Of a stretch of DNA of 33,401 bases, positions 3,566 through 32,821 are shown piece by piece. How positions within the stretch are numbered: the stretch's first letter is position 1; every line of letters begins with the position of its first letter. The notes below the pieces were generated by a model. The model worked only from the letters and a program-made list of their open reading frames with translations, ran no database searches and was not told where the DNA came from. Source of the DNA: Candidatus Hodarchaeum mangrovi (GTDB taxonomy: Archaea > Asgardarchaeota > Heimdallarchaeia > Hodarchaeales > Hodarchaeaceae); the NCBI GenBank assembly GCA_016839515.1, contig JAEOUE010000044.1, forward strand, positions 1 to 33,401, written 5' to 3'. Both the position numbers and the translations under genes were made by a program.

Positions 3566-4387
3566 TTATAACCTTGTTTTAATCCAATTTTGGATTCCAG
3601 TAATTCTTTCATAACTCCTCTGTGAAATAAGTAATGATAATCCAAATGTGATCAGAACATTTGTAACTAAGAAAAATGTGAATTCTTCAATAGGTAGGAT
3701 GCCACCTAAGAGAATATTTATCGTTTGAAATGGTGAGATTTCCCAAATTCCATCTTGAATAGCAATTGCATCGGTAATAGCAAAATAAATTGTACCTAGT
3801 CCTATAGTTAATGAAACTGGAATTTTCATTTCCCACAATATATCTGCTCCAAAGAGAAGTTGAACAGAGATGGGAGGTAAAGCCCATAGTAGTATCAAAT
3901 TTAAATAATTTAAACTCTCAATTTGCGAAAAAAAAGTGACTAAAGAGATTACCCAGATTGAGAGAACTGGAAGAATCACCAATAGATTTTTTAGACCCAT
4001 TTTCATTACTGACTCCTTACTCTTTGAGATTTTTCCAGAAAATTGCCTATATATCAGGATGAATGTCAAACCTATTAAAAAGGTCTGTAAAATAAAAAAC
4101 ATGTACTCTTCAAATGGAACATATCCGATGATTATACCTAAGATTTTATCAGGATCATAACTCCATACTTCAGAAGCAACCAGATAATTATCCCAAGGTG
4201 TAGTATAAATTATAGCAATCAAAGCTAGGAAGAATATTAAAAATCCTATTCTTTGAAAAGTTGGAAAATAACTCTGATTATTTGATTGTTTTAATCGCAC
4301 GATGCCTATGAATAATATAAAGCCAACGATTAGAGGTATAATAACAAATAAAATTAAGAAAAAGGGATAATTCAACATACTTGGCAC
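3566..4387 (-). CDS. crtY: Membrane lycopene cyclase with two tandem CrtYc/Yd-type domains
   Basis: Two repeats of the D..W..P.EE..FF signature (PWDNYLVASEVWSY...VPFEEYMFF and DAIAIQDGIWEI...LPIEEFTFF). Multiple TM helices; lies directly downstream of crtI. Confidence 0.88.
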   Translation of the reverse strand: MPSMLNYPFFLILFVIIPLIVGFILFIGIVRLKQSNNQSYFPTFQRIGFLIFFLALIAIIYTTPWDNYLVASEVWSYDPDKILGIIIGYVPFEEYMFFILQTFLIGLTFILIYRQFSGKISKSKESVMKMGLKNLLVILPVLSIWVISLVTFFSQIESLNYLNLILLWALPPISVQLLFGADILWEMKIPVSLTIGLGTIYFAITDAIAIQDGIWEISPFQTINILLGGILPIEEFTFFLVTNVLITFGLSLLISQRSYERITGIQNWIKTRL

Positions 4388-4407
4388 CTCAGGTAAACGT
4401 AATTCTT

Positions 4408-5940
4408 TTAGGGATTATCATTCTTATTATAATTGTCATAAGCTTTTAATATTAAATCAGTAGTAACTTTAGCACTAGAAACTACTCCTGGTAAACCTGC
4501 TCCTGGATGAGTTCCTGCACCTACAAGATACAATCCTTTAATATCTTCAGATTTGTTATGGGGTCTAAACCATGCTGACTGAGTAAAAACCGGTTCTAAG
4601 GAAAATCCAGTACCTTTATAGCTACTATAATCTTTCTTAAAATCCAAAGGAGTTAGAATTCGATCAGTAACAATATTATCAAGTAATCCTGGCAAGTAAT
4701 TTTTATCTAAGAATTTAAGTATCTTTTCTTTAAATGGGGTAGCAATTCTGGTCCAATCGTCTTTAGAATCCAAATTTGGAACAGGAATAAGAATATAAAA
4801 GGCTTCATGACCTTCAGGAGCTAAACTTGGGTCTGTTCGTGTTGGAACATGTAAATAAGAACTGAAATCCTCACTTAAAACTTTTTTATTAAAGATATCT
4901 TCCAATAGTTCCTTGTACCGTGGACCTAAAATGATTGTATGATGTTTCATATCTGGATATTGCTTTTTTGTCCCAAAATAGATAACAACAAGACTCATAG
5001 AATATTTTGCTTTTGAATATCGTTTATCTTTATTCTTTTTCCTCCATTTTTTATCAATTAATTGAGTATAGGTGAATGCAGGATCAATATTTGAAACTAT
5101 AAGATCTGCAGAAATTGTTTCCCCAGATGTCGTCTTTACACCTCTTACCTCTCTATTTTCAATTAAAATTTCCTTCACTTCGCTATTAACAACTATTTTT
5201 CCCCCTAATTCATGAAATAACCTTGCTAATGCGTGAACCAGTGATGTTGTTCCCCCTTTAGCAAACCAAATACCAAATTCTTTTTCTAAATATTGAATAA
5301 GACTATAAATAGACGGAACGGAAAACGGATTTCCCCCGATTAATAATGGATGGAAGCTAAAAACCATTCTAAGCTTATCATTCTTAATATATTTCGAGAC
5401 AAATTCATAATTAGATCTGTATGATTGCAATCGAATAAGGGCTGGAGCAACTTTTAACATTGACCAGAAGGAAATAAAGGGTTGAAATGATAGCTCTTCA
5501 AAACCTTTCTCATAAATTGGTTTAACAGCCCTAATCATCTTCTTATAGCCCTCAACATCCTCGGGACTAAGAACTTCGATTTGAGGAATATTTTTATCTG
5601 GATGTGAATAATCAAAATATGTCTTATCATTAAAATAAACCCGATAGTAGGGTTCTACTGGAAAGAATTTTACGTAATCATCAATATTTTTTCCAGCTAA
5701 TTCGAAAAGATTCTTAAATATTTGAGGGGCAGTTATTACTGTTGGACCTGCATCAAATACAAATCCATCTTGTTTGAACACCCTTGCTCTTCCACCTATC
5801 TGATCTAGTTTTTCTAGTATTGTTACATTATATCCTTCGTGCTGTAATCGGATTGCAGCTGCTAGCCCACCGAATCCAGAGCCTATAATTACGATTCTTT
5901 TTTTTGTATTCAATTTTTTCATTAAAATTTCCGCCTTCAC
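4408..5940 (-). CDS. crtI: Phytoene desaturase
   Basis: FAD motif IIGSGFGGLAAA, GGRA, FDAGPTVIT, HPLLIGGNPF and the C-terminal signature LYLVGAGTHPGAGLPGV. The start may be the ATG at 5922. Confidence 0.95.
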   Translation of the reverse strand: MKAEILMKKLNTKKRIVIIGSGFGGLAAAIRLQHEGYNVTILEKLDQIGGRARVFKQDGFVFDAGPTVITAPQIFKNLFELAGKNIDDYVKFFPVEPYYRVYFNDKTYFDYSHPDKNIPQIEVLSPEDVEGYKKMIRAVKPIYEKGFEELSFQPFISFWSMLKVAPALIRLQSYRSNYEFVSKYIKNDKLRMVFSFHPLLIGGNPFSVPSIYSLIQYLEKEFGIWFAKGGTTSLVHALARLFHELGGKIVVNSEVKEILIENREVRGVKTTSGETISADLIVSNIDPAFTYTQLIDKKWRKKNKDKRYSKAKYSMSLVVIYFGTKKQYPDMKHHTIILGPRYKELLEDIFNKKVLSEDFSSYLHVPTRTDPSLAPEGHEAFYILIPVPNLDSKDDWTRIATPFKEKILKFLDKNYLPGLLDNIVTDRILTPLDFKKDYSSYKGTGFSLEPVFTQSAWFRPHNKSEDIKGLYLVGAGTHPGAGLPGVVSSAKVTTDLILKAYDNYNKNDNP

Positions 5941-5971
5941 AGTAAATATGTCATTAAAATCATTTATTAAT

Positions 5972-6040
5972 TATGAACGAGAATTTTAAGTTTCAACAAA
6001 ATATTTATATTCATGAACTAAATTATACTACATGAACTTA
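5972..6040. promoter_or_regulatory. Repeated ATGAAC boxes in the divergent crtI/crtB promoter (candidate operator)
   Basis: ATGAAC at 5973, 6013 and 6032; CATGAACT at 6012 and 6031; palindrome TTCATGAA at 6010-6017. Confidence 0.45.
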
Positions 6041-6087
6041 AAAATTTTATCTAGTGTTCTCAAAAGTCAAAAGAGAGTTTACAGAAA

Positions 6088-7029
6088 ATGTATGCTAATG
6101 AAAAGCTGGAAAATATACAGTTACTCCCTGAAAGAATTAATGCTAAGTATAACGTGATTAGTTCATTAGATGAATCCTATAAATTTTGTCTTGATTGGAT
6201 GTCAGTTCATAGCAAATCATTTTTCTTTGCATCAAGGTTTCTCCCAGATGATCAACGTAAAAGTGTTGCTGCTTTGTATGCTTTTTGTCGCTTAACTGAC
6301 GATATTGTAGACGAAGCTTCTGAAGAGACATCAATCGAAGAAATTAATGCAAGCTTAGATCATTTAAAGCAAATAGTGATCAACCTTTCAAATGGATATA
6401 CCTCAACAAATCCAATCCTTCATGCATTTGGAGACACAATTAAAAAACACCGTATTCCTGTCGAATATATGCATGAACTAATTGAAGGCGTCCGAATGGA
6501 TCTAAATAAATCTGAATATTATTCTGAGGATGAACTAGACCTTTATATGTATCGTGTTGCATCTACTGTAGGATTAATGATGACAACAATCTTCATTAGC
6601 AATCCTGAACCCCAAGTTCTTGCTAGAGCTGCTGATTTAGGAAAAGCTATGCAATTGACCAATATTCTACGAGATATAAAAGAAGATTACAATAAAGGGC
6701 GTATTTATTTACCTGAAGAAACACGAAACCTCTATGGGGTTACCAAAGCAGATTTAGAAGACAGAGAGATTTCGAAGAACTTAATTGCACTAATCAAATT
6801 TGAAACAAAAAAAGCACGATCATATTACAATCGTGCGGATTTAGGAATTAAAAAATTACCCCCCAGCGCTGCTTACACTGTCAAAGTTGCATCACGTGTC
6901 TATGGTGAAATATTAAATGAAATTAAACGTCGCAATTATCAGATATTGAAACAAAGAGCCGTCGTTTCAAAGCTTAGAAAAGTTATAATTGCTTTAAAAG
7001 TTCGATTGTCCTTCATTGGAAAATTATGA
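6088..7029 (+). CDS. crtB: Phytoene synthase
   Basis: SKSFFFAS, LYAFCRLTDDIVD, YRVASTVG and QLTNILRDIKED..GRIYLP; divergent from crtI. Confidence 0.95.
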   Translation: MYANEKLENIQLLPERINAKYNVISSLDESYKFCLDWMSVHSKSFFFASRFLPDDQRKSVAALYAFCRLTDDIVDEASEETSIEEINASLDHLKQIVINLSNGYTSTNPILHAFGDTIKKHRIPVEYMHELIEGVRMDLNKSEYYSEDELDLYMYRVASTVGLMMTTIFISNPEPQVLARAADLGKAMQLTNILRDIKEDYNKGRIYLPEETRNLYGVTKADLEDREISKNLIALIKFETKKARSYYNRADLGIKKLPPSAAYTVKVASRVYGEILNEIKRRNYQILKQRAVVSKLRKVIIALKVRLSFIGKL

Positions 7030-7220
7030 TCATCTTCCCTGATTCTTTGTATAGAATAAAGATGAATTAAGTTATATAGAAAAAAAATGATAAAAAATTG
7101 CTTTTACACACAATAAAAAAATTATTTATGACGTAATAAGGGATTTAAACTGACAGAAAGTAAAGTAGTAGCTTTTACAGGAATAGATTAGCAATAATTT
7201 TTTGAACAGAGAAGATTTTT

Positions 7221-8366
7221 ATGCTTAAACTTGACGAAAAAATTATTCTGTCTTTAAGAAAGAATCGAAAAATTATTGTACATTATGATGAGTTAAAAAA
7301 TGAGTTCAAGGTAGACAATTCTAAAATCAAAGGAATTATTTCCCGATTAATGGAAAAAGGCTTCATTACTGAAGAGGAAACCGAATCATCACACCCAGTT
7401 TTTAAAGTAGTCAGTTCCCAAGACTTTATTTTAAATTATTTAAGGAAGAATCGTAATCGTGAAATTCCAGTCTCGGAAATAGTTAAAAATAGCTTTCTTA
7501 AACGGAATACTATTTCTAATGCAATTCATGAACTTCAATTAAAAAATCTTATTGAAATTTGTCGACGACCCCTTAAGAGAGGTAGATATACCGTTATTTG
7601 GTTAACGGGAGACATAATTACCGAAAAGTATCGTCATAAAGATGAATTAGTAGAAGAAGAATTTATTGAGGAGAAATTTCAGAAAAGATTATCTAAAGAA
7701 CCAGTAATTATAGATAGGAATCTAAATGAAGATATTTCTTATTTAAGTTCAAATTCATATGATCATGTTGAATTTTTTAAGAATTTATTACCATTAACAC
7801 ATGATATTTTCACTTTTGTAACTGGTTACCTTAGTCCTTTAATGACCCAAGTTGGTAATCTCTGGGAAAGTGCTGAATTGTCAACTGTAGACGAACATAT
7901 TATTTCTGCTAGGATGGAGAAAATAATGATTGAATTAATTAATCAACGGAATAACATCAAAGGGGAAGTAATCATTTTAGTCTCAGTTGAAGGAGAATTT
8001 CATACATTAAGTTTACTCGCTTTAGAATTACTATTTACAGATTACTCATACTATGTGATTAATCTTGCTAAACCCCTCCCTATTAAGGCTTTAATTCGTT
8101 ACCTTCAGGAAAAAGGAACTCCAAAATGGATTTTTCTTTCTATTACCCAATCTATATATCGGGGTACATTGAAGCGTGACATTATTTTACTTCGAAAAGA
8201 GTTTGGAGACACTGTTGGAATAGTGATTGGAGGAAAGGGTCTATTAGAAGAGGATCGAAATAAATTTCCAGGAGCAAATAATGTAATTATTACCCCTGAA
8301 GATCTTTTTCAATTTTTCACTAGTTCTTTCAAAAGAAGGAAAAATGACAATGATTCCTGCTATTGA
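7221..8366 (+). CDS. Cobalamin-binding transcriptional regulator (CarH/LitR-like sensor domain with N-terminal tandem wHTH)
   Basis: W-x9-EH motif (WESAELSTVDEH), EGEFHTLS (ExHxxG variant), LSIT and IVIGGKG. Two N-terminal wHTH-like units, both containing LRKNR. Adjacent to crtB. Confidence 0.8.
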   Translation: MLKLDEKIILSLRKNRKIIVHYDELKNEFKVDNSKIKGIISRLMEKGFITEEETESSHPVFKVVSSQDFILNYLRKNRNREIPVSEIVKNSFLKRNTISNAIHELQLKNLIEICRRPLKRGRYTVIWLTGDIITEKYRHKDELVEEEFIEEKFQKRLSKEPVIIDRNLNEDISYLSSNSYDHVEFFKNLLPLTHDIFTFVTGYLSPLMTQVGNLWESAELSTVDEHIISARMEKIMIELINQRNNIKGEVIILVSVEGEFHTLSLLALELLFTDYSYYVINLAKPLPIKALIRYLQEKGTPKWIFLSITQSIYRGTLKRDIILLRKEFGDTVGIVIGGKGLLEEDRNKFPGANNVIITPEDLFQFFTSSFKRRKNDNDSCY

Positions 8367-8388
8367 TTTTTTGAGATAAAAAATAACT

Positions 8389-9381
8389 TCATCCAACAAT
8401 ATTTGGGTAAATAGACGGTTCTTGCTCTGGATTAAAGTTTAAAATTTCCTGAGTTGAGAGAATACGTGCGATACGTCCTGTTTTACCATGGATTGAGAAA
8501 GGTAGACGCAGTAATCTCCGTGTATCAATTGTTACTTTATGATCAATTCGTGGAACCCAACGACGAAGTATTTCATCATATTTATTGCTTCTCGCAAGAT
8601 TTATGTTGAATTCTCTGAAAACTATTTCATCAATTTTCCCATCTTGATGTTTAATAAGACTAATAATGTTTGATGCTCTGGAAGTAGTTAAACCTACATT
8701 TAATAAATCCTTCCGTTTAACATCTGTGAGAAAAGCCCGAAAAACGTTATACTCGACACGTTTTCGAAATTCCTCGGGAAGTTCTTTACGATCCTCTACC
8801 CGTGCTGTTTCTTCTTCACCATGAATTACGGTGAGATAATCGATAATCGACATCCGTTGTTCTTGGGTTAAATTAAAACCACAGGAATCAGTTACCCACC
8901 CGTGAATACCACGTCGACCTGAAAAAACCCAAACAATGTCTTCCATACCGAAATCTAGCCGAAGTGTTTCATCGATGATGTTAATAGCAAGAGTAATTAA
9001 TTGCCAACATCGATTGCAAAGCTGATCTGCTCCCTGACATGTACAGATATAATTTCTTACAGCATCATATTCATTAAGATCAATGTCAAATACTAATTCA
9101 TGACCTAACCAACCTAGCGTATGAATTGGAGATTGGCGTGTTGGAGGATTGTCATAAACAGCTCCGACATATGCATGAAGTGGTGTACGATCAACAAGAA
9201 AATCATGCAGTGCTGAGGGATCTTCAAAGGAAATATTTCGGAAGAATTTGTTGTCTGAAGAAGCAAATCCAAATTCACGTGTACGAAAAGTTTTGAAATC
9301 AATAACTCTTTCTAACCCTTTTATGTCAAAAAAAGAAGCATAATAATCACGAATAGCCATTTCTCTTGAACTTTGACTCAT
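8389..9381 (-). CDS. priS: DNA primase small (catalytic) subunit
   Basis: REFGF, ELVFDID, Cys cluster CTC..CNRCW, VFSGRRGIHGWV and PRID...RLLRLPFSIHGKTG. Confidence 0.95.
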   Translation of the reverse strand: MSQSSREMAIRDYYASFFDIKGLERVIDFKTFRTREFGFASSDNKFFRNISFEDPSALHDFLVDRTPLHAYVGAVYDNPPTRQSPIHTLGWLGHELVFDIDLNEYDAVRNYICTCQGADQLCNRCWQLITLAINIIDETLRLDFGMEDIVWVFSGRRGIHGWVTDSCGFNLTQEQRMSIIDYLTVIHGEEETARVEDRKELPEEFRKRVEYNVFRAFLTDVKRKDLLNVGLTTSRASNIISLIKHQDGKIDEIVFREFNINLARSNKYDEILRRWVPRIDHKVTIDTRRLLRLPFSIHGKTGRIARILSTQEILNFNPEQEPSIYPNIVG

Positions 9382-10706
9382 TGGGTCTCCCTCTTTGTTT
9401 CTTCCTTGGGTTCTTGGTTTTCTACATTATAAATTCCAATTATTTTACTAGAAATCCGTACCCATTGTAAGGGATGAACAATTTTTCTATAGGGGGTTCG
9501 ATTATAAATATATGAAAAATATTTAGTACATGAGGAAGTAGGATCTTTTGAACTCTGTTCAACTAATTGATCAATTAAATTAGAAGAAATCTCTACTGAA
9601 TGAGCTTTTGTTAAATGATTTTCAGCCAAAAATTCATGTAAAGATTCTGGATCAAGATGAATGAAAGGACAGAAATAGCTTGTGGCAATTGTCGAACATT
9701 TAGGAACATTATAATCCTTTTTTCCTCCCTCTAAGCCATAAAGATGACGGATTTGATAACCTGATGTACGAAGAAATTCACTGTAACTTATGTTCACATT
9801 GTCAATAGACTTTTCAAACCAGTAGTTCAATTGCTCTTCTACAGACATCCCTACTCGTTTTAAAAAAAACCCAAGTTGAAGTCTCTTGGTATGAGTCAGT
9901 CTTCTAGTGGATTCTAGTTCAGTTGAAAGATAAATCATACAAGGAGGAAAAATTTCAGGGTGGTTATGAAGCAAAGAACCTACTAAATCCTCGGATGAAA
10001 ATCGAGAACGAATTTGGGTATGTTTTGCTAATTGTTGCTCCAGTTCTTGGACAGCTTCGTCAATATCCTCCCTTACACCGAGTAAATTCTGACTACTTTC
10101 AATTTCCATCTGAAGAGATTTTTCAAACGCCTTTTTAAGGCTCCCCCGGAATGAATTTTCGTTTGATACAACCCATCCTTTTCTCAAATACCCTTTTCGG
10201 TTGGAAATCATCCATGGTACTTGTGAAAAGTGAACACAAATTAAAAAGTCCCGTGATGCCCCTCTCCGTAATCCTGAAATATAATCATTGTATAATTTTG
10301 CCAGTATCACATTCTTAGATTCATCTCTTGAATTCTTAAATTCTTCATATTCCATGACATTTTGTTCCCCAAATACCCTTTTAAATATCGCTCGTTTTTG
10401 GTCAGGAGTGGTTCGATCAAAATAAAGTCTTTCGAACAAATCTCCTTCAGATTCAATTAACCAGGCTTCCAAGCTCCTATTTGTTGCTGCTACAAGGCGA
10501 AGAAGGTAAGCTCCTAAACGGTACTGTTCATAAATTTCATTTAATGAATCCTCATAAGTTGGAAAATTATCTCGTATTACTTGAGATGGATTTGACGGTA
10601 AATTTTCTAGTAATTTGACACGATGCAATGCAAGTTGTTTCCATTCCCGAATTTCAATATTAAGATTAGGAGGGGATTGAAGAATGAACCAATTTGGGAG
10701 TGACAC
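9378..10706 (-). CDS. priL: DNA primase large subunit with Fe-S domain
   Basis: FPPCM, RLQLGFFLK, YQIRHLYGLEG, PKC..FCPF, CTKYF and HPLQW. Overlaps priS by 4 bp (ATGA). Confidence 0.93.
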   Translation of the reverse strand: MSLPNWFILQSPPNLNIEIREWKQLALHRVKLLENLPSNPSQVIRDNFPTYEDSLNEIYEQYRLGAYLLRLVAATNRSLEAWLIESEGDLFERLYFDRTTPDQKRAIFKRVFGEQNVMEYEEFKNSRDESKNVILAKLYNDYISGLRRGASRDFLICVHFSQVPWMISNRKGYLRKGWVVSNENSFRGSLKKAFEKSLQMEIESSQNLLGVREDIDEAVQELEQQLAKHTQIRSRFSSEDLVGSLLHNHPEIFPPCMIYLSTELESTRRLTHTKRLQLGFFLKRVGMSVEEQLNYWFEKSIDNVNISYSEFLRTSGYQIRHLYGLEGGKKDYNVPKCSTIATSYFCPFIHLDPESLHEFLAENHLTKAHSVEISSNLIDQLVEQSSKDPTSSCTKYFSYIYNRTPYRKIVHPLQWVRISSKIIGIYNVENQEPKEETKRETQ

Positions 10707-10927
10707 AGCAAATACCTACAAAATTTTTTAAATTTCCTTTATAAACCTATTCTATTGGCATTTCTTTTCAAGTGGGGGAGAATAAGGCTTTTATATTACT
10801 CAATATTTCTGATAACTTTTCTCTTTTTTGATCATTAAATAATTTAATAGGACAAAAAATATATTTGTATAAAATAAGGAAATCTAATTACTTAAAAAAA
10901 TTTTATCTGTATTATTAATTTAATTAG

Positions 10928-12004
10928 TTAGAGAAGTAATAATTCTTCATCAGGGTAAGAGAGTTCTGAGGGGGAATATTGATGGTTTTCATTTAACCCC
11001 TGATAATCTATGAGAGAACGAAATAAATAAAGCTCTTTTTTAGTTGTTCTTTGCTCCATACGTGGTGCCCATATTTTTAATCCTGCTTGTAGTCCCCAAT
11101 AGAAATATGGTAATGCAGCCTGAATAAGAATTTTTGGTAACATAGGTGTATCAAAAAATAATCGGTCATAAACTGGATCTTTTATGTTAAGCTGTTTTTG
11201 GATATTTAAATGACGATAAATATCAAAACGAATATTATGCTCTAAATGCTGGAGTAAATAAGTAAACCAATCTGACCAAATTTTATAATGTGACCCAGTT
11301 CCGAATGTCTTGAGATTAATTCTTGAAGGAGATTTCTTCACCTTTCTGAGAAACTCCAGAATTTCCTCTTCATTAAATCCGTTTACATAAGTATAACAAC
11401 GACCAACCATCTTAGGTTGGTGATTATCCCCTCCCGCAATACCAGGTAGGTCAAGTTCTCTGGCAATAATCTGAGCAAGGTAATTGTGACGTTTTGGTTG
11501 TAAACCATTTACAACCTCAATCATCCCAAATCGTTTTAAGACAGAAAACTTAATTTTATAGGTTTTTCGATCATATCCTCCAGCTGGTGCACTTTGGGAA
11601 AGATCAAAAGGATGAGCTAAAACATAGACTGCATTGTTGTCATCTAGGTACTCTAAAAATTCAGGTAATGGTTTAAATCGAATTTCCCATGGAATTTTTC
11701 TGAGTCCATATGTTAAAACGTGTGCCCAGCCACGACCTTTTCGATCATATTTTGTAACTTCTTGTCCAACGATAGGGATAATATCCTTGTATTTTGAGGC
11801 ATAATGTAGGAAAGAATTGACTCCGTTCATATTATCATGATCAGTAATAGCAATAGCACCAAGTTTTTTATGTCGAGCAAGTTTAACTAAAAGCTTTGGT
11901 GAAATTGCTGAATCTTGAAAAAAGTGGTCTCCTCTTAATCGGGGAATCCGTAGTAGAGAGTAATGGGTATGAGAATGGAGATCTGCTTTTATCATTTCGC
12001 TCAT
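10928..12004 (-). CDS. PHP-domain metal-dependent phosphoesterase
   Basis: DLHSHT, AITDHD, GQEV, LAHP and GGDNH metal-ligand motifs. Confidence 0.88.
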   Translation of the reverse strand: MSEMIKADLHSHTHYSLLRIPRLRGDHFFQDSAISPKLLVKLARHKKLGAIAITDHDNMNGVNSFLHYASKYKDIIPIVGQEVTKYDRKGRGWAHVLTYGLRKIPWEIRFKPLPEFLEYLDDNNAVYVLAHPFDLSQSAPAGGYDRKTYKIKFSVLKRFGMIEVVNGLQPKRHNYLAQIIARELDLPGIAGGDNHQPKMVGRCYTYVNGFNEEEILEFLRKVKKSPSRINLKTFGTGSHYKIWSDWFTYLLQHLEHNIRFDIYRHLNIQKQLNIKDPVYDRLFFDTPMLPKILIQAALPYFYWGLQAGLKIWAPRMEQRTTKKELYLFRSLIDYQGLNENHQYSPSELSYPDEELLLL

Positions 12005-12191
12005 AACTAAATACTCTCACCAGATTATCTTTGAATACTTGCAATAATCTTCCGACTTTTATCTGATTTTAAAGTTTCGTTTTAATTTTCATTTTTTTCC
12101 ATTTAAAACTGATACTTTGCTATGACCGAGGATAGATATTACCTTTTAAAAATGGAATAACATACAGACTAGTCCTTATCTCTTAGATTTC

Positions 12192-22895: not shown

Positions 22896-23378
22896 TTACT
22901 TTTGCTTTCTTCCTAGTAATTTTGAGACAAATCTGCTCCATAACGACTTTTTAGGTACTATTCCCGAAATATCACCCATACTAGGATTGGATACTACATT
23001 TAACTCTATTAGATCTTTTTCAAAATCTTGGTATTGACCCTCTATAATAATGTCTCCTATTTTATCACTAAATTTTTCAAGAAATCGCTCCATTGCTCTA
23101 TTCAACTGTTCTTTAATAATTTCAGTACCAAAATTTACAGGATTTGCAAAAACTAATATAATTTCCTTTTCTTTGTCGATTTTAAAATCCAGTTTAATTT
23201 CGTTAAAAATAACACATTGTATTTCATCGCCAAAAGACTCCTGTGAATAAGAATATATAGCTGCTAAAAATCCTGTTTGGAGAGAATGATCGGGGTGGAG
23301 TTGACAATAATTACCACCAAAACATTTTCCGAATAAAGGAATTCCACTAGTTTTAAATATGAAAACGTCATCTACCAT
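22896..23378 (-). CDS. Longin-like domain protein
   Basis: VFIFKTSGIPLF, then a helix SLQTGFLAAIYSYSQE, beta strands, and ERFLEKF..QDFEKDL, the pattern of Asgard longin-fold proteins. GGTGA RBS upstream. Confidence 0.7.
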   Translation of the reverse strand: MVDDVFIFKTSGIPLFGKCFGGNYCQLHPDHSLQTGFLAAIYSYSQESFGDEIQCVIFNEIKLDFKIDKEKEIILVFANPVNFGTEIIKEQLNRAMERFLEKFSDKIGDIIIEGQYQDFEKDLIELNVVSNPSMGDISGIVPKKSLWSRFVSKLLGRKQK

Positions 23379-24434: not shown

Positions 24435-25340
24435 TTATAAAAAGAAGCAACCTTCAGCTGTTTTTTTTACTGTTCCTCCAACAATTATTTCGGCAAAATC
24501 GCTATTTTGGAATTGACATTCTGCAATTAATTTACTAGGACGATTTAGTTCATATCCTTGTTCCAGAATAATTTTTGATCCTTTTATTTGATCAGAAAGA
24601 ACTTTATTTGCCTCAAGATATGCTGCAATTGGACCCGCTGCACTTCCTGTTGCTGGATCCTCAAAAACACCAGCAGAAGGGGCAAACATACGTACATGAG
24701 CGTGAGAATCATTATGAATAGTCTCTGGGGAAAGAACAACTAAATCTTGGGCTGGAAAATCCTTCAGGGTATCTAATAATAATTCAGTATTTAATCTAAT
24801 CTTCTGAATTATAGCTAATGAGGTGATTGGAACTATTAGATAGGGAAATCCAGTTGAAATGAATTGCATTGGCCATTTATCAGAAATTGCTGTGGGGGAT
24901 ACTCCTAGAACTTTAGCTATAATTTCTTTATCCTTGAAAACTTCTATGAATTGGGGGACTGGTTGATACATTTGAACTTGATCTTTTTCACAAAATTTTA
25001 CCTCAATTGGACCAATTCCCAATTCTAAAAAAGCATGGTTTTCATTAGGTTGTATGACGCCTTGATTTCTCAATACAAATGCTGTTCCAAGAGTTGGATG
25101 CCCAGCAAATGGTATTTCAAGCCCTGGAGTAAAGATTCTTACTTTACGAACACATTTTTTGGTCGTAGAACTATAAACAAAGGTTGTCTCAGAGAAATTC
25201 ATTTCTCGTGTGATTCCCTGCATTTCTTCTTGGGTTAAATCAGTATTAGAAAGCTTCCAAAAGGTTGCAAGTTGATTTCCAGAGAATAAATAGCGTTTAT
25301 CAGTGAAAACACTTGTTTGTATAAAATTTAATGAACGAAT
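24435..25340 (-). CDS. PhzF-family isomerase/epimerase (start extended to a probable ATT at 25340)
   Basis: NFSETTF, EIPFAGHPTLG and EDPATGSAAG. The family N-terminal motif VFTD..FSGNQLA is encoded in frame upstream of the tracked ATG at 25223. Confidence 0.88.
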   Translation of the reverse strand: MRSLNFIQTSVFTDKRYLFSGNQLATFWKLSNTDLTQEEMQGITREMNFSETTFVYSSTTKKCVRKVRIFTPGLEIPFAGHPTLGTAFVLRNQGVIQPNENHAFLELGIGPIEVKFCEKDQVQMYQPVPQFIEVFKDKEIIAKVLGVSPTAISDKWPMQFISTGFPYLIVPITSLAIIQKIRLNTELLLDTLKDFPAQDLVVLSPETIHNDSHAHVRMFAPSAGVFEDPATGSAAGPIAAYLEANKVLSDQIKGSKIILEQGYELNRPSKLIAECQFQNSDFAEIIVGGTVKKTAEGCFFL

Positions 25341-25890
25341 AACAAGACCTCCTGCATTATCATTAAGATTTTAATTGCTGATTTAATTTTCTTTATTATC
25401 TTAATAGTTCTGGGGCGAGTTTTTCTTGTGATTAGATATAGTAGTTTATAATTCAATACTTCAATTATAGGAAATCCTTCACCCAATAATTAAGCATTAA
25501 ACTTCTTAGTTTTAATTACTGCAGTAATGGTTATATTTTTATCGTTTTTTACTATTCTTGTTCCATATAAAAAAACTATCTTTTGATTAATCTTTTTTCT
25601 CGTTAACTTGAGAGATATAACGGTTATGTATTATCCTGACCATGATAATACTCACATTCTTTCATTATTTAATTAGATCATGAATTAATTGAGAATCTGA
25701 GTTAATTTGCATTAGAAAAAATGACTTCATTCCTGGCTATTATAAATAAATGTAATATCCCTCTATCCCCTAGATATAATTTACAAGCTTTAAATTTCTT
25801 TTAGTTTAATATCCATCGTTAAGTGTAGAAACTGCGCCCTCTCGTACATTTAATCATTGGAATCAGACATTGGAATATTCTCTTTTTAAT

Positions 25891-25910
25891 GTAGTCTTTT
25901 TTTAGACTAC
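25891..25910. terminator. Hairpin downstream of peptide gene 1
   Basis: GTAGTCT-T6-AGACTAC, a perfect 7-bp stem about 65 bp past the peptide stop. Confidence 0.3.
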
Positions 25911-25973
25911 TTTTATATAGCAATTGATTCGTCCATTCTTTTATTAAAATGTAAGAGAATTGGAGTTTTTTCG

Positions 25974-26126
25974 TTAATCTATTGCTGGAGGGGCTACAGC
26001 GGGGTTTGCACTAGCCAATGATGAAGATAGGAATAACATTATTAGTAGAAATATGATTGGAAGCAATTTCCAGAATGTTAATTCCACATCGAATGATTTA
26101 TTTCTTATTCTTAAAGTTTTTTCCAT
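25974..26126 (-). CDS. Unannotated 50-aa signal-peptide/Pro-tail peptide 1 MEKTLRIRNKSFDVELTFWKLLPIIFLLIMLFLSSSLASANPAVAPPAID
   Basis: Translated by hand. GGTGA lies 5 nt before the ATG. Basic n-region, hydrophobic h-region, A-S-A site. Divergent from the 26300 regulator and homologous to peptide 2. Confidence 0.8.
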   Translation of the reverse strand: MEKTLRIRNKSFDVELTFWKLLPIIFLLIMLFLSSSLASANPAVAPPAID

Positions 26127-26190: not shown

Positions 26191-26223
26191 AAATTTTGCG
26201 GATTGGTTCTCTAGACAAAATTT
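26191..26223. promoter_or_regulatory. Inverted repeat AAATTTTG-N17-CAAAATTT (candidate operator, module 1)
   Basis: Perfect 8-bp arms at 26191-26198 and 26216-26223 between the divergent peptide and regulator genes. Confidence 0.45.
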
Positions 26224-26299: not shown

Positions 26300-27754
26300 G
26301 TGGAAGGCTCACAAACGAAACAGTTTATAGATCAAATCCGACAAAAAGGAATTGACGCTGAGGCAGATGACTTTGTCATAGATCTGATCTATATATGGGA
26401 AAAAATCCACAATGATGCTCCAAATATCACTCTGGCAGAAATTAAGGACTATTCTGAAAGTATCCTTTCAAATGTTACTCTTCCTTTCTATGAAAAATAC
26501 AAACATGATCCAACAATCAAAAAGTATGATTTATGGTTGAAAGATTATTATTCAATTGTTGTTGAATGGACAGGGCAGGGAGCTATAATGTTCCCCTCTA
26601 GACTGATCAATTATGAAGTTTTCAATCATAGAGACCAAATGTTTGAATATTTTATAAACAAACTTAAAACAGGTGAGTTTAGACTTAAGAAGGAAGATCT
26701 CTTTTCTTTTCTCTTTCCACGACTAATCCATGTTACAGTTCCTTTATCAGAGACTGACATTCTGATATTAAAATCACTTCAATATCTACAAAATACTCAC
26801 AGCCCTGATCCTTTAAAAATCCCTAAAGTTGAGGATTATGCGAGACATTTGGATGTATCTACCCGTACAATAATTCGTAGATTCAATATTATCAGATTTT
26901 TCCAAGTTTACATCAATATTGGTTTATTAAATATGAGTAAGCTAGGTTACGAGACTTTTTTACTATCTCATTTTGATCCAATACCTCCTGATCTTGCCAA
27001 GTATGTAGTTTTATCTGCAGATCTGGATATAAGTAATTTTACAATAGTTCAGATGCCAATAAAAAATACAAAACTATTTCTCGAAGCACAAGAGAGTTTT
27101 CAACCAAAAATTTTCCATCAGATGTCTGATCGTATACATTCGTGGTCATTATCTTTACTGGGAGCAGATGGTAAAGGTTGGACTTCCCCCCCAGCATTTA
27201 TTCATTCGGATCCTCGTGTCAATATTATAAATCCTTCTCCAGATTTTCATTTTGACCTCAAACCAGGACTAGATGTATTTCGACTTTTAACTCCTGCTGA
27301 CTTTAAAATTCTCGATTTTCTTATCACAAGAGGGGCAATCTCAAGCCTTAAAGATCTAAGTCGAACAGTAAATGTTTCTCCTTCTGAGATTACAAAGCGG
27401 ATTCAAGAATACGAAGCTCATAATATTCTTTTTAAAACATATCAATTCTATAACCTAGGATTAGATTTACACATCCTCTTCTTTATAAGCTCCCCAAATG
27501 ATCTAGGAATTCCGTGGCTCAACCATTTCTTGACATTTCCAAAATGCGACGTTTTTTATAGCGAAGAAAATGATTCTTCATTCTATTTTGGATTTCTGAA
27601 ATTACCACCTCAATGGATCAAAGAACTTACGCGTAAAATACACCAGATTAAGAAAGAGTTTAAGGATATTAAATTTTATTATACACTAGAACCTCCACTT
27701 GAGCTAAAATGGAATCTTTCTCTTCCAGAGACTTATCCGAAGGAAAATATGTAG
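26300..27754 (+). CDS. Large regulator with tandem Lrp/AsnC-like wHTH modules (paralog 1)
   Basis: LSETDILILKSL...YARHLDVSTRTIIRRF...NMSKLGY and LTPADFKILDFL...LSRTVNVSPSEITKRI...YNLGL. Confidence 0.75.
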   Translation: MEGSQTKQFIDQIRQKGIDAEADDFVIDLIYIWEKIHNDAPNITLAEIKDYSESILSNVTLPFYEKYKHDPTIKKYDLWLKDYYSIVVEWTGQGAIMFPSRLINYEVFNHRDQMFEYFINKLKTGEFRLKKEDLFSFLFPRLIHVTVPLSETDILILKSLQYLQNTHSPDPLKIPKVEDYARHLDVSTRTIIRRFNIIRFFQVYINIGLLNMSKLGYETFLLSHFDPIPPDLAKYVVLSADLDISNFTIVQMPIKNTKLFLEAQESFQPKIFHQMSDRIHSWSLSLLGADGKGWTSPPAFIHSDPRVNIINPSPDFHFDLKPGLDVFRLLTPADFKILDFLITRGAISSLKDLSRTVNVSPSEITKRIQEYEAHNILFKTYQFYNLGLDLHILFFISSPNDLGIPWLNHFLTFPKCDVFYSEENDSSFYFGFLKLPPQWIKELTRKIHQIKKEFKDIKFYYTLEPPLELKWNLSLPETYPKENM

Positions 27755-28359: not shown

Positions 28360-28685
28360 ATATGATCTTTCTCATGACTTTATTATTGGATTGATTTAAT
28401 TTAACCAGTAAAAATATCTATAAATCAACCAAACAACCCGAAAATGATAAGAATTGAACCTCTTAATATTTTAAATCTGGGAATATTTATTTATTTTTAC
28501 TCTGTATGGATTCTAAATCGAATAAACTGAACTTAGAATCAAACCAAATTGGATCAGTCTTAAATTAACCGATTCCAACTAGTTAAACATAGATCAAGAA
28601 TAGAATCTTTATCAATTGTGAATATTTAATTCAGGCACGTTTTAATATTTCCTTTGTATCATGTTCATTGATTTTAATCAATAGG

Positions 28686-28832
28686 ATGAGTGAATTTATG
28701 GTTTGTCCAAATTATGATGATAAGAATTCAATGTGTACTGCTTTGGGACAGAAATTCTATACAGGAATGCAAAAGCCTTGTTTGGATCTAGATGACCCAG
28801 AAAAATGCCCAATTCTCACAATGAGAGGATGA
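28686..28832 (+). CDS. Unannotated 48-aa four-cysteine protein MSEFMVCPNYDDKNSMCTALGQKFYTGMQKPCLDLDDPEKCPILTMRG
   Basis: Translated by hand. CP-x9-C-x14-C-x8-CP pattern in a 630-bp gap; alternative start at 28698. Confidence 0.7.
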   Translation: MSEFMVCPNYDDKNSMCTALGQKFYTGMQKPCLDLDDPEKCPILTMRG

Positions 28833-28989: not shown

Positions 28990-30453
28990 CTAATTAAATA
29001 AGGTACCCAAGATACTTATAGCTCTTTTGATGTGATTCTGCTCATCAGCCACTCCCAAATGGATATTAAATCCCAAATTACCTAATTCATTCCATTTTCG
29101 AGTAAAGATCCTAAACCAAGTCTGGGGGATGGTGAGAGTTCCAAGTAATAAACGGGGAGAATAATAGAGACTGACAAAGGGAAATTGACTTAAATGATCA
29201 CAAATATGTTGTGTTATTTTAGTTTCACCCCAATCTGAAATTAGAATCATCCATATAGTTAGATCCAAGCCAATATTTGAAACAATGCTAATTGGGAGAG
29301 TTATTTCTTTCTTTAAGATTTCTCGCCATAACCGAGTTATACTATCTTGATTCACACCAGCATATTCAGCTAATTGGATTTCCTTGGTTGTACCATGAAT
29401 TTGATAAAAATTAAGCAATCTAGCTTGGGAGACGGTGAGTTTCACTGGATCTAAATTTGGAGTTAATTCCATTTTCAGACCTGAATGATCAAGAATAATC
29501 TCATCATCCCAATTATTTTCCCGTAATATTGGGGGTGGTATTTTCCAGCGCTTTTCAGGTCTTTTATGGATAGGGGATAAATGCCAGCCAATATATTTTG
29601 AATATAACTGAAATTCACGTAATGGATTTAAATCTTCTTGAATTTTGGAGAAAATGAAGTGTTTCCAATAGGGGATTTGATAAATTTGTAACATTCCTTT
29701 CTGTAATCCTAAATTGAAAGGTAGTTTCCCTAAACAATATTCATCATAGCTCGAAATTGTCTCTTCATGATCAAATAAATATGCTATAGTTTGATACCCT
29801 AATTGTGCCATTTTAACTAAATAAGTGTGTGTAAGTATATATTGATCATATAATCGACCACAACGTGTAGAAATGGTTTTGGGTTCACAATCAATCGCTT
29901 TAGCAAGTTCTTTTTGACTTGGAAATCGTTTCCAATGGTGACAGAATGCTGAATCAGTATAATAGAGTATAATTTTTCTATCAGTGTTATTTAGAGGTAA
30001 GTTTGAATCATCAAATACTTTCCAAAGTGTTGATAGAAAGTCTTGTATACTCTCTTTCTTCTTTAGATCTGTTATCTTCCAATCCATATCATAGATAAGT
30101 TTTGAGGCTAATTTATGCGGAAATAACATAATACTACCCTCAAATAACAAACCAAATGAATAATAGTCCTTAGCATACTTTATTCGCCATATAAAATAAT
30201 GTTTAAATTCTGGGATTTTTATCCATTTATTCATAAAGGGTAGGGTATGGCTCTTAAATAGAAGTTTACTTACTTCTCGGGCATTATGAGTTGACGTAAA
30301 ACAGTATTTTTGTAATTTGCTAATAAAATCTAGAAATTCTTGGATGAAAGTGCTTTCTAATTCACTCTTAATATCTTCAGAAAGTTGGGTTTGTTTTGGA
30401 GCCAAGATCTTACTACTCAATCCTTTATTTTTAGATTGGATTATAAAAATCAT
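28990..30453 (-). CDS. Large regulator with tandem Lrp/AsnC-like wHTH modules (paralog 2)
   Basis: LNNTDRKII...SQKELAKAIDCEPKTISTRC...MAQLGY and LTVSQARLL...LAEYAGVNQDSITRL...SNIGL. Shares G.I..FP..L and W.L...W..PP motifs with paralog 1. Confidence 0.75.
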   Translation of the reverse strand: MIFIIQSKNKGLSSKILAPKQTQLSEDIKSELESTFIQEFLDFISKLQKYCFTSTHNAREVSKLLFKSHTLPFMNKWIKIPEFKHYFIWRIKYAKDYYSFGLLFEGSIMLFPHKLASKLIYDMDWKITDLKKKESIQDFLSTLWKVFDDSNLPLNNTDRKIILYYTDSAFCHHWKRFPSQKELAKAIDCEPKTISTRCGRLYDQYILTHTYLVKMAQLGYQTIAYLFDHEETISSYDEYCLGKLPFNLGLQKGMLQIYQIPYWKHFIFSKIQEDLNPLREFQLYSKYIGWHLSPIHKRPEKRWKIPPPILRENNWDDEIILDHSGLKMELTPNLDPVKLTVSQARLLNFYQIHGTTKEIQLAEYAGVNQDSITRLWREILKKEITLPISIVSNIGLDLTIWMILISDWGETKITQHICDHLSQFPFVSLYYSPRLLLGTLTIPQTWFRIFTRKWNELGNLGFNIHLGVADEQNHIKRAISILGTLFN

Positions 30454-30496
30454 TTCTAATTTAAATTCTTACTTAAGAGTCGATTAGATAAAAACG

Positions 30497-30534
30497 AGAC
30501 TTTGTCATCCTTACTTACATCAAAGTCTTGATGT
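30497..30534. promoter_or_regulatory. Inverted repeat AGACTTTG-N16-CAAAGTCT overlapped by palindrome ACATCAA-N4-TTGATGT (candidate operator, module 2)
   Basis: Arms at 30497-30504 and 30521-30528; second dyad at 30517-30523 and 30528-30534. Confidence 0.55.
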
Positions 30535-30579
30535 GGATTATATTAGGTGGCATCCGGCTTTCATTAATTGTGATAAATT

Positions 30580-30735
30580 ATGAAAGCTCTCAAGCCACGT
30601 TTAGTTTTAAACCAATCTAATTTAATTCGACTTATACCTATTAGTTTTTATATGGCATTACTACTTTTAGGAATTATATTGGGAATAACTGACCCAAATC
30701 CTCCCCCACTTCCTCCACCATGGACTGGTGGTTAA
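30580..30735 (+). CDS. Unannotated 51-aa hydrophobic-helix/Pro-tail peptide 2 MKALKPRLVLNQSNLIRLIPISFYMALLLLGIILGITDPNPPPLPPPWTGG
   Basis: Translated by hand. GTGAT upstream; divergent from the 30453 regulator; aligns without gaps to peptide 1. Confidence 0.8.
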   Translation: MKALKPRLVLNQSNLIRLIPISFYMALLLLGIILGITDPNPPPLPPPWTGG

Positions 30736-30783: not shown

Positions 30784-31098
30784 ATGATTTTGCAGGAGAA
30801 AAATGGAGTTGGGTTTTTGAAAAAGACCCAAACTCCTATTATATTTTCTATGCTTACTTTATCCTTATTTAATAATTTTAATATGAAATCAAATCACCTA
30901 ATCCTTGAAACAAGGGATACAACGGAGAAACAATACTTAAAATATTGGTTACGATTATTAAAAATAATTTCAGGTTTAGATTATTATTTGAAGCCGATAA
31001 AGGGAAATAAATCATACGAATTATTTTGTTCAAGCGACTCCAATTACTTTCAGCAATTATGGGAAAAAATAATCACAGTACCATTAAGGATGGATTGA
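30784..31098 (+). CDS. Hypothetical protein (104 aa)
   Basis: AAGGAG RBS upstream. Its stop TGA overlaps an in-frame TTG of the next gene. Confidence 0.55.
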   Translation: MILQEKNGVGFLKKTQTPIIFSMLTLSLFNNFNMKSNHLILETRDTTEKQYLKYWLRLLKIISGLDYYLKPIKGNKSYELFCSSDSNYFQQLWEKIITVPLRMD

Positions 31099-31916
31099 AA
31101 GTTCTAAATTTGAAATTAATAGATTCAACTGAAATTTACAGACCTTTCACACCAATTCTAGTTGTAGATTATAATAAAATAGTTTTTTTTTCGCAGACTC
31201 TTGCTAAGCTCTGTAGATTCCATCCTTCGACTGTCATTCCTACTTCTTTATCTGCAATTTTGAAAATGTTACCATATTTTCGAATAATAAATATTAACCC
31301 ATTAAAAATATTCCTTGGACAACAAAACAAACCTCCATTTATGGAGATTCCGGCTTGGGGAACGGAAATTATACATGAACTACGTACTTCGGTTTTACAC
31401 CTTGATTTAGGAATAAATGCAGTACTTAAAGATACTGAAGCAACTCGAAAGATAGTTCAAGCCAATAGAAGAATAAAAATTTCAACTCTATTGGCTTCAG
31501 ATTTCATACAACTACACTCTACACCTCCAGAGATCGAATTGATTTCCTTGGATAAAGTAATCCAAGATATCCTTACAATTGTTGATAATGGAAATGTGAA
31601 ATACTCAATAATCCGACAAAACACTCCAGATATTTGGGCAAATCAGACTTTTTTAAGTTCATTCTTTATAAATATCATCACATGGTTAAATACGTATTCT
31701 TTAATCATTGAATTTGAATTACTCAATCTAGTTTCTATAAAAATTCGAATAATCACACCTGATGATTATATGATAGCTTTACTCCCTGGATACAGAATGG
31801 TTACTTATTATATTGATTATATCGCATCGTATTTTAACGCACGAGCGTGGTTTGATCAAAATTCTCTCAATATAATTTTTCCCTCATTATCTCATTTATA
31901 TAAGAAATTAACATAA
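31095..31916 (+). CDS. Degenerate PAS-HisKA histidine-kinase-like protein
   Basis: PAS-like PILVVDYNKIVFFSQTLAKL, H-box IIHELRTS and an eroded N-box (DIWANQTFLSSFFINII); no G1/G2 boxes. The TTG at 31095 is preferred over 31026 because it gives a TTGA overlap. Confidence 0.6.
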   Translation: MKVLNLKLIDSTEIYRPFTPILVVDYNKIVFFSQTLAKLCRFHPSTVIPTSLSAILKMLPYFRIININPLKIFLGQQNKPPFMEIPAWGTEIIHELRTSVLHLDLGINAVLKDTEATRKIVQANRRIKISTLLASDFIQLHSTPPEIELISLDKVIQDILTIVDNGNVKYSIIRQNTPDIWANQTFLSSFFINIITWLNTYSLIIEFELLNLVSIKIRIITPDDYMIALLPGYRMVTYYIDYIASYFNARAWFDQNSLNIIFPSLSHLYKKLT

Positions 31917-32164: not shown

Positions 32165-32821
32165 TTGAAGCTTATAATTGGGAAGGTTATTGGTCTTCCT
32201 TTCCTATTTGTTTTTATGAATCTTGGTTTTTTTCTATTTTCACCTGAAATTTTTACACAGCTATCTATTTTACTACCAATTTTACTCCTGTTTGTATTTA
32301 TTAGTATTGATATTCTCATTCGTCCCATATCCGCTGAGAAGGATGCTTTTCAAAGATTAATTTTAATAATCTCTTTTTTGATATTTCCAATCTTCCTCTA
32401 TTTACCATATGTCGAATTTTCCTATTGGGAGAATTCACTCTTTATGAGTAATATCTATTGCTATTTGCTTATTCTAGGAAATTTTCTTTTATTTTCGGGA
32501 GGAACGATTCTGTTTTGCAGTCGATTACAGCTTGGGAAGTTTGGTGGTCCAAAACTTGTCATTGAAACCGATCATATATTAATCCAAACAGGATTTTATC
32601 GATTTATTCGTCATCCCATGTATCTAGGTTTTCTTTGTCTTTTCTTAGGGTACAATATAGCAGTAGGAGGGCTTTTTGTAGCCTTTCTTGGTACTTGTTT
32701 TTTCTTTTTACTCTTTAGATATAGAATGATCATTGAGGAGAATCAATTATTAGAAGAATTTGGGAACGAATATTCTGTTTATAAGAACAGAACCAAACGG
32801 TTAATTCCGTTTTTTTATTAA
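32165..32821 (+). CDS. Isoprenylcysteine carboxyl methyltransferase (ICMT/Ste14/PEMT) family membrane protein
   Basis: HILIQTGFYRFIRHPMYLG, RMIIEENQLLEEFGNEY..Y and RLIPF. Confidence 0.9.
   Translation: MKLIIGKVIGLPFLFVFMNLGFFLFSPEIFTQLSILLPILLLFVFISIDILIRPISAEKDAFQRLILIISFLIFPIFLYLPYVEFSYWENSLFMSNIYCYLLILGNFLLFSGGTILFCSRLQLGKFGGPKLVIETDHILIQTGFYRFIRHPMYLGFLCLFLGYNIAVGGLFVAFLGTCFFFLLFRYRMIIEENQLLEEFGNEYSVYKNRTKRLIPFFY

Follow-up and report, generated by a model that had tools for sequence, protein, structure and literature searches.

A strongly diverged candidate peptide gene paired with a presumed tandem Lrp/AsnC-type regulator gene in Candidatus Hodarchaeum mangrovi

Does a short open reading frame (ORF) on contig JAEOUE010000044.1 of the Asgard archaeon Candidatus Hodarchaeum mangrovi encode a protein, and if it does, to which family and which system does this protein belong? 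The stretch of DNA analyzed here, hereafter the window, comprises 33,401 bases with a G+C content of 32.1%, and carries this ORF (peptide 2) together with a second one of similar size (peptide 1; Table 1). A first-pass annotation had aligned the two translations and proposed that they share a leader and differ in the tail. The reading to which we give a probability of about 0.5 is that the ORF of peptide 2 is a genuine gene, paralogous to, though far diverged from, the Hodarchaeales-specific peptides of ~50 amino acids that are paired with tandem Lrp regulators in a peptide-regulator circuit. The first part of this reading, that peptide 2 is a real and homologous gene, is very probable when taken on its own. 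The defining feature of the system, absent from the first-pass annotation, is the gene context, in which each of the two ORFs lies head-to-head with one of two paralogous genes, here called big1 and big2, for proteins of ~485 amino acids.

The translation of peptide 2 is laid out as a basic n-region, a 20-residue uncharged span that opens with the motif [KR]L[LI]PIxF common to peptide 1, and a 14-residue Pro-rich tail with a GG end. The proposed gapless alignment of the two peptides was recovered on the best diagonal (offset 3; 47 overlapping positions by manual count) with a BLOSUM62 local score of 41 and 9 identities, and the tails diverge, as had been described. The shared core motif, written as [KR]L[LIV]P[ILV]xF, is found only in these two ORFs in the six-frame translation of the whole window. 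Scores of at least 41 were obtained in 7 of 5000 full shuffles and in 73 of 5000 region-preserving shuffles, in which the n-region, the hydrophobic region and the tail were shuffled separately, making the alignment modestly better than chance. The similarity is real, slightly above chance, and takes its weight from the gene context, because both ORFs are located divergently upstream of paralogous genes. A further element that had been presented as shared, [ND]P at 18-19 residues past the conserved Pro, is indeed present in both peptides (P23 and N41-P42 in peptide 1, P20 and D38-P39 in peptide 2) and is not a family trait: it is found at those columns in one of the 19 aligned peptide-1-type sequences, namely the window's own peptide 1.

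The family itself was delineated by one scan of species-representative genomes with big1, which gave 23 loci, three of them starting inside the gene and leaving 20 with a readable upstream region. An ORF of ~50 amino acids lies divergently upstream of the matched gene in 17 of these 20 loci; second pairs are present at second paralogues in L010 and L011, and with the window the number of pairs is 20. A hidden Markov model (HMM) trained on 18 distinct peptides and searched against the window and all loci, translated in six frames (8048 segments), returned 20 matches at E ≤ 9e-20, each of them divergent from a big-family gene. The second peptide of L010 was outside the training set, yet it matches at E = 9e-20, and peptide 1 (E = 1e-23) is a typical family member. 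The pairing is fixed, with the peptide and regulator genes of the peptide-1 type head-to-head and ~115-175 nucleotides apart from start to start. The 20 members are spread over the window and 17 of the loci, 18 genome stretches in total, which all come from Hodarchaeales-type metagenome-assembled genomes (MAGs), and three of these stretches (L010, L011 and the window) have two peptide-regulator pairs with differing tails. The expectation that a conserved leader and a variable tail would mark a family is thereby borne out, with peptide 2 only a marginal hit of the HMM, and the differing tails may, as had been suggested, be specificity variants. No divergent small ORF was seen upstream of the matched gene in L020 and L021; L018 has a divergent 43-residue ORF with a similar architecture and a Pro-containing tail, which resembles neither peptide 2 (E = 0.49) nor the family HMM to a significant degree.

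Peptides of the peptide-1 type are 50-53 amino acids long and have a [KR][LM][LI]P..F hydrophobic core. In the alignment of the 19 distinct sequences (A2), M1, R6, R8 and P23 are invariant, and the two columns corresponding to positions -3 and -1 are occupied by small residues, with G, A or T at column 39 in 18 of 19 and A, G or S at column 41 in all 19. The c-region is Ser-rich. In the 10-12 residues of the tail that follows it, Gly, Ala and Pro are frequent; 17 of the 19 sequences have G46, and 14 end in Asp. The leader is conserved, with a mean pairwise identity of 0.47 in the n-region, 0.50 in the h-region and 0.38 in the c-region, and is better conserved than the tail (0.28). Judged by inspection, this n-h-c anatomy appears signal-peptide-like. 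Two other kinds of signal, likewise inspected by eye against their customary definitions, fit poorly: a Tat signal, as the twin arginine is missing, and a class III/prepilin signal, as the hydrophobic stretch is not preceded by a [KR]-[GA] cut site. The peptide-1 type is under coding constraint, as seen in the purifying selection between the close pairs L006-L009, where the proportion of synonymous differences (pS) is 0.28-0.39 versus 0.03-0.11 for nonsynonymous ones (pN). Along with this, the start regions of 19 peptide-1-type genes are unstructured (minimum free energy, MFE, 0 to -3.5) and GGUGA or GUGAU precedes the AUG in most of them, all of which is evidence for translation of these ORFs.

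The second feature that binds the peptide to its neighbor is an operator-like box between the two genes. A box of the type CGgAgA..TT.TCTAGA is present in fixed orientation in all 20 peptide-1-type intergenic regions, with position weight matrix (PWM) scores of 16.0-34.6, and that of peptide 1 and big1 is flanked by an 8-bp inverted repeat (26191-26198 and 26216-26223). The box is restricted to these intergenic regions: when both strands of 282,549 bases were scanned, all 26 hits with a score of at least 15 fell between the peptide and regulator genes of the 20 pairs. These 20 regions had also served to train the PWM, which is circular to that extent; the complete absence of the box elsewhere is informative despite the circular training. 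The hexamer TCTAGA, counted by itself, occurs 16 times in ~6.7 kb of peptide-regulator intergenic regions versus 96 times in the remaining ~276 kb. No second box-bearing target was found within the sampled 6 kb. The CCGrA half of the box resembles the CCGAAA-type half-sites that are reported for archaeal Lrp-like proteins in the available portion of one paper (PMC2715240). Going by its sequence and position, the box supports a predicted binding of DNA by the big protein and a putative closed regulatory loop on the pair.

The two big proteins of the window are paralogues (BLASTP, 25% identity over 419 columns, E = 5e-22). Neither they nor the peptides have a match in NCBIfam or a match above threshold in Pfam, where big1 reaches 26.2 bits with an HTH_AsnC-type family, just under the cut-off of 27, and the matches of big2 to HTH_36 and MarR are both sub-threshold. 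An AlphaFold2 model of big1 was built from a 22-sequence alignment, with a predicted local distance difference test (pLDDT) score of 87.6 and a predicted template modeling (pTM) score of 0.83. The best Foldseek match of this model in the PDB is NirDL (4ch7, E = 1.9e-7, 362 columns), followed by single Lrp/AsnC regulators, and the single FFRP matches have probabilities of 0.97-1.0. Based on these matches, big1 is modeled as a fused double Lrp/AsnC unit in which helix-turn-helix (HTH) and RAM domains alternate (HTH-RAM-HTH-RAM), preceded by an N-terminal helical domain of ~140 residues. This N-terminal domain matched nothing, and no TPR proteins are among the best 50 Foldseek matches of the model. 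In the recognition helix, S187, R193 and R194 vary hardly at all across the big family. A complex prediction for big1 and peptide 1 scored 0.01 and gave no answer, counting neither for nor against binding.

For big1, 28 database homologues were found, and all source names point to Asgard MAGs, mostly Hodarchaeales; the related proteins are named 'hypothetical' or 'Lrp family regulator'. We also noticed that records titled Thorarchaeota, Hermodarchaeota and Promethearchaeota (L002, L005, L008, L009 and L020) carry family members that in the tree nest among Hodarchaeota/Heimdallarchaeota records; the phyla under which these MAG records are labeled seem inconsistent. The relatives of big2 are P0031 (99%, partial), P0032 (39%, NCBI tag ACFFFG_07570) and P0033 (26%), of which only P0032 is informative. 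In a quick tree, drawn with a midpoint root for display only, the long branch that unites big2 with P0032 is the deepest one and lies outside the 30 remaining family members, with a Shimodaira-Hasegawa-like approximate likelihood ratio test (SH-aLRT) support of 100. The 20 peptide-bearing regulators are spread over all main clades of the 30, and eight peptide-less paralogues are nested as tandem duplicates, a distribution that fits an ancestral peptide-regulator pairing. Big-family genes are locally amplified, with four copies in L002, three in L003, two in L010 and three in L011 within 13 kb, and the extra tandem copies are mostly peptide-less (of all copies, three of four lack a peptide gene in L002 and two of three in L003).

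Where does peptide 2 stand relative to this family? With 11.2-11.3 bits (E = 0.098) it ranks 21st of the 8048 segments, the first after the 20 members, and it is the best-scoring of the 8028 non-family segments, a set that includes 156 natural small hydrophobic segments. Its HMM score was reached by 10 of 2000 architecture-preserving and 1 of 2000 full shuffles, and hhalign aligned it with A2 over 34 columns at a probability of 65.8% and E = 5.7e-5. The slot it occupies matches that of the family, on the opposite strand and 126 nucleotides from big2, as do its length of 51 amino acids and its three-part build of basic n-region, motif core and short tail. The codon usage is gene-like, with log-odds of +17.7 bits in its own frame, the best of the six (in-frame gene windows, mean 14.3 +/- 5.4; off-frame 95th percentile, 16.0). 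The frame is intact in P0029, a protein 98% identical to peptide 2 and listed by NCBI as a 'hypothetical protein' of Candidatus Hodarchaeum mangrovi. The earlier remark that peptide 2 lacks a clean A-x-A is half right: aligned by eye at offset 3, the -3/-1 columns read G-I-T in peptide 2 and G-I-A in P0029, both of which are compatible with the small-residue columns of the family. We read peptide 2 and big2 as an old pairing that was inherited and then diverged.

Table 1. Features of the two peptide-regulator pairs in the window
Feature	Position	Strand	Description
Peptide 1 ORF	25974..26126	-	50 aa + stop; GGTGA 5 nt before ATG
Operator-like box, peptide 1 / big1 intergenic region	26193..26222	+	CGG..N..TCTCTAGA type; PWM 23.9
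big1	26300..27754	+	484 aa; head-to-head with peptide 1
big2	28990..30453	-	487 aa; head-to-head with peptide 2; presumed cognate regulator
big2 / peptide 2 divergent intergenic region	30454..30579	.	126 nt; 8-bp inverted repeat 30497-30504 / 30521-30528
Hairpin/palindrome across the peptide 2 start	30547..30598	+	MFE -20.4 kcal/mol
Peptide 2 ORF	30580..30735	+	ATG start; 51 aa + stop

How such a pair might work can be sketched as follows. The big protein would bind the shared intergenic region and set the transcription of both the peptide gene and itself. The peptide would insert with its N-terminus inside, following the basic n-region, and in the peptide-1 type it would probably be cut after the small-x-small site, leaving a peptide of 10-12 residues, usually Asp-terminated, outside the cell. 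Either the released tail or the retained leader would feed back on the peptide's own regulator, akin to the divergent Firmicutes pairs Rgg-SHP and PlcR-PapR but with an Lrp-fold receptor. Peptide 2 and big2 would form a second, insulated module with an oligo-Pro-GG tail and a different operator, in which the hairpin over the peptide 2 AUG may act as an extra translational or operator control, and for the 14-residue tail both release and anchoring are possible. The peptide may thus function as an exported signal or as a membrane-anchored partner.

A number of observations weigh against this reading and have to be set beside it. By sequence alone peptide 2 is a marginal family member (E = 0.098; hhalign 66%). 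At the positions of the invariant R6 and R8 it has A and K (offset 3, by eye), it lacks G46, and its tail ends in T-G-G and not in a hydrophobic residue followed by Asp. The intergenic region between peptide 2 and big2 has no family operator box, the best PWM score there being -8.0. Beyond P0029 and one artefact, no other relatives of peptide 2 were found by a word-based search of 5.8 billion clusters or by an exhaustive phmmer search of 1.84 billion representatives; the artefact, P0030, was rejected as a relative because this 551-residue protein has seven repeat copies and owes its score to summed repeat scores. The AUG of peptide 2 (30580-30582) is buried in the stem of a strong hairpin of a kind absent from all 19 peptide-1-type starts; it has a z-score of -4.69, none of 200 shuffles folded equally well, its loop holds the Shine-Dalgarno-like GUGAU, and a 13-nucleotide inverted repeat (30557-30569 and 30575-30587) lies at the start of the ORF. 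About seven further ORFs of ~50 or more codons overlap or sit inside long ORFs in 4.9 kb at 32% G+C, and the open frame alone is weak evidence for peptide 2 because there are ~7 comparable ORFs in 4.9 kb of such AT-rich DNA. Turning to the circuit, a plain export signal would not usually have so long, charged and highly conserved an n-region, and neither in the window nor in the loci, up to 6 kb away, was a peptide importer, signal peptidase or exporter recognised. Eight of the 30 full-length family regulators have no detectable peptide, and the regulator can therefore work without one. In addition, NirDL, the closest solved fold to big1, is an enzyme and not a regulator.

The main rival to the paired peptide-regulator circuit, which we find rather unlikely, is that peptides of both types are uncleaved, N-in single-pass membrane proteins whose cytoplasmic n-region is the working part, with no exported signal. 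Such a protein could be a tether or anti-regulator of the adjacent Lrp-type protein, or a small effector under its control. It would account for an n-region that is conserved like the hydrophobic core (0.47 vs 0.50, with R6 and R8 invariant), which is odd for a disposable export signal, for an uncharged span of 20-21 residues in both types (manual count), enough for a membrane helix, of which the last part is strongly hydrophobic in peptide 2, and for the lack of any peptide transporter found near the pairs. What it leaves without a ready explanation, should the tail play no part, are the small residues at -3 and -1 (18 of 19 and 19 of 19), the uniform tail length of 10-12 residues and the Asp end in 14 of 19 sequences.

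A more far-reaching proposal, that the pairs are peptide signalling cassettes, has the leader exporting a peptide of 10-14 residues that would be sensed by its own tandem-Lrp receptor, so that one genome would hold two insulated channels ('pherotypes'), peptide 1 with big1 and peptide 2 with big2; we regard it as unlikely. In a variant, the intracellular ligand would be the leader fragment left in the membrane after cleavage and not the tail.

More doubtful still is that peptide 2 arose by chance as an open frame in the 330 bp that separate big2 from the following ORF, the palindrome (30547..30598) being the real feature, as an operator or an RNA hairpin, and the likeness to the family coming from hydrophobic composition. 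This would explain why the AUG is in a -20.4 kcal/mol hairpin seen in no family member, why there is no independent orthologue and why R6 and R8 are missing, and frames of this size are common here (manual count). However, a chance frame would also have to be right in strand, distance, length and three-part architecture, be the best of 8028 non-family segments with a score equaled by 10 of 2000 architecture-preserving shuffles, exceed the off-frame 95th percentile of codon log-odds (+17.7 vs 16.0) as the best of six frames, and be intact in the 98% identical P0029.

Finally, a precursor of a ribosomally synthesized and post-translationally modified peptide (RiPP), with the leader recognised by a maturation enzyme, the tail as core, and processing into a natural product by the M16 pair and unknown proteins that adjoin some relatives, is very improbable: it is suggested by the conserved-leader/variable-tail layout, by a pair of Peptidase_M16 genes (Pfam E = 1e-10 to 3e-26) that 6 of the 23 loci have within 6 kb and by clusters 1 and 2, both of unknown family, which 8 of the 23 have in varied arrangements on either side of the pair, but within the same 6 kb the M16 pair is missing in 17 and clusters 1 and 2 in 15 of the 23, the operator box was not found upstream of the M16 or cluster genes, the tails are Gly/Ala/Pro-rich and by eye contain little of the Cys, Ser and Thr on which common RiPP chemistries act, RiPP leaders do not typically have a hydrophobic core that spans the membrane, and the reading is weak because the 33-kb window has no M16 genes, no cluster 1 or 2 genes and no maturation enzymes.

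The genes around the pairs deserve a separate description. In related loci a recurrent gene set adjoins the pair on either side and in varied order (L001:2128-4278 and 7037-12060; L006:1-5184; also L002, L003, L004, L007, L008, L012 and L017). It consists of cluster 2 (72-105 amino acids) paired with cluster 1 (125-162 amino acids), both of unknown family, as well as an unknown protein of ~146-158 amino acids, a protein of ~510 amino acids with a Pro-rich linker and C-terminal membrane segments, and the two Peptidase_M16 genes; none of the genes of this set is present in the window. All 11 cluster 2 proteins end in GG plus one residue. A ubiquitin-like nature of cluster 2 was considered and rejected, since the model has an alpha-beta-beta-alpha-beta-beta order with no PDB matches at E ≤ 0.001 and Atlas scores all below 0.8.

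The next ORFs downstream of peptide 2, on its own strand, are two that overlap (30784..31098 and 31026..31916, +; 104 and 296 amino acids). Neither Pfam nor NCBIfam gave a match for them, and hhalign showed no relation to the big family (probability 0.1%); a single gene with a frameshift could account for them, as could a pair of orphans transcribed together with peptide 2. A PEMT/ICMT-family membrane methyltransferase (32165..32821, +; Pfam E = 1e-10 and 6e-10) follows 1.4 kb downstream of peptide 2, and a 54-residue Cys-rich ORF with no family match (28668..28832, +) is located between a DinB-family gene and big2. Downstream of peptide 1 there are 750 bp (25224..25973) with no ORF of more than 52 amino acids, no Rfam or tRNA match and no similarity to the related loci, an unusually long non-coding stretch for so dense a window. 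Rfam and tRNA scans of the window found nothing, and its intergenic and gap regions showed no DNA or translated similarity to any of the loci.

Farther away, the region 3566..8366 encodes a carotenoid set of a lycopene-cyclase-like protein (sub-threshold), a flavin amine-oxidase-family protein, which we read as of the phytoene-desaturase type, and a phytoene synthase. It is adjoined by the gene of a 381-residue protein with winged-helix matches and two B12-binding domains, a layout that we take to be reminiscent of B12-dependent light-responsive regulators. For a 160-residue protein (22896..23378, -), the first longin domain of FUZ/MON1/HPS1 was matched below threshold (17.6 bits against a cut-off of 26.1). 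Longin trafficking domains are eukaryote-like and typical of Asgard genomes.

The small-protein family and the Lrp-type regulator architecture described here are recognised by neither Pfam nor NCBIfam, and no published description of the peptide-regulator pair was found in the literature searched. Even on a conservative reading, an unannotated small-protein family and a new Lrp-type architecture are added. Among the known archaea, Hodarchaeales belong to the closest relatives of eukaryotes. Very little is known about signalling between archaeal cells, and the available portion of a 2025 paper (PMC12240190) lists three cases of true archaeal quorum sensing, none of them with a gene-encoded peptide. 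If the pairs do signal, they would represent the first archaeal case of a gene-encoded peptide signal and its cognate receptor, with a receptor fold unrelated to that of the bacterial RRNPPA receptors. The module is directly testable, consisting of a tiny leader-tail peptide, a fixed Lrp-fold partner and a private operator, with several diverged copies per genome.

Compared with known systems, the pair has partial likeness to several. With RiPP precursors associated with M16 pairs it shares the conserved leader, the variable C-terminal core and, in 6 of 23 loci, the M16 pair itself; PqqF and AlbE/F are M16-family peptidase pairs that process RiPP precursors. The difference is that the leader here is hydrophobic and predicted to span the membrane, and no modifying enzyme was identified near the pairs. 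With Sec-type signal peptides and type II anchors the peptides have in common a basic n-region, a hydrophobic core, a short polar c-region and small residues at -3 and -1, whereas only 10-14 residues are left past the presumed cut, with no mature domain, and the n-region of ~20 residues is conserved in sequence.

Regulators of the Lrp/AsnC family (FFRP) are single units of ~150 amino acids that form dimers or octamers and bind amino-acid ligands. Their winged HTH and beta-alpha-beta-beta-alpha-beta (RAM) domains are both found twice in the model of big1, where, unlike in the family at large, two units are fused in one chain of 484 amino acids behind the ~140-residue helical domain. The NirDL/AhbAB siroheme decarboxylase has a fused double-Lrp fold like that of big1, but NirDL is an enzyme. 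The operator-like box adds to the likeness with its CCGrA-like half-site, as far as such sites are described in the accessible text of PMC2715240.

The RRNPPA systems (Rgg/SHP, PlcR-PapR and ComR-ComS) provide the remaining comparison. RRNPPA receptors are defined by a TPR-type peptide-binding domain, and PapR, with a signal peptide, has ~48 amino acids. According to the accessible part of PMC13361665, in Rgg/SHP-type pairs a small hydrophobic pro-peptide gene lies beside or divergent from the gene of a cytoplasmic HTH receptor, with the C-terminal part of the peptide as the signal, and Firmicutes have several paralogous pairs per genome, each peptide being specific for its receptor. The arrangement of a pro-peptide gene adjacent to or divergent from an HTH regulator gene is found here too. 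On the other hand, the peptides here have 50-53 instead of 17-35 amino acids, with a long conserved charged n-region, no counterparts of Opp, PptAB or Eep were seen near the pairs, the host is an Asgard archaeon, and the receptor would be a fused double Lrp/AsnC protein with an additional N-terminal domain and not of TPR type. The pair is thus best described as analogous to the RRNPPA systems and not as a member of them, because the fold of its receptor fails the definition of that family.

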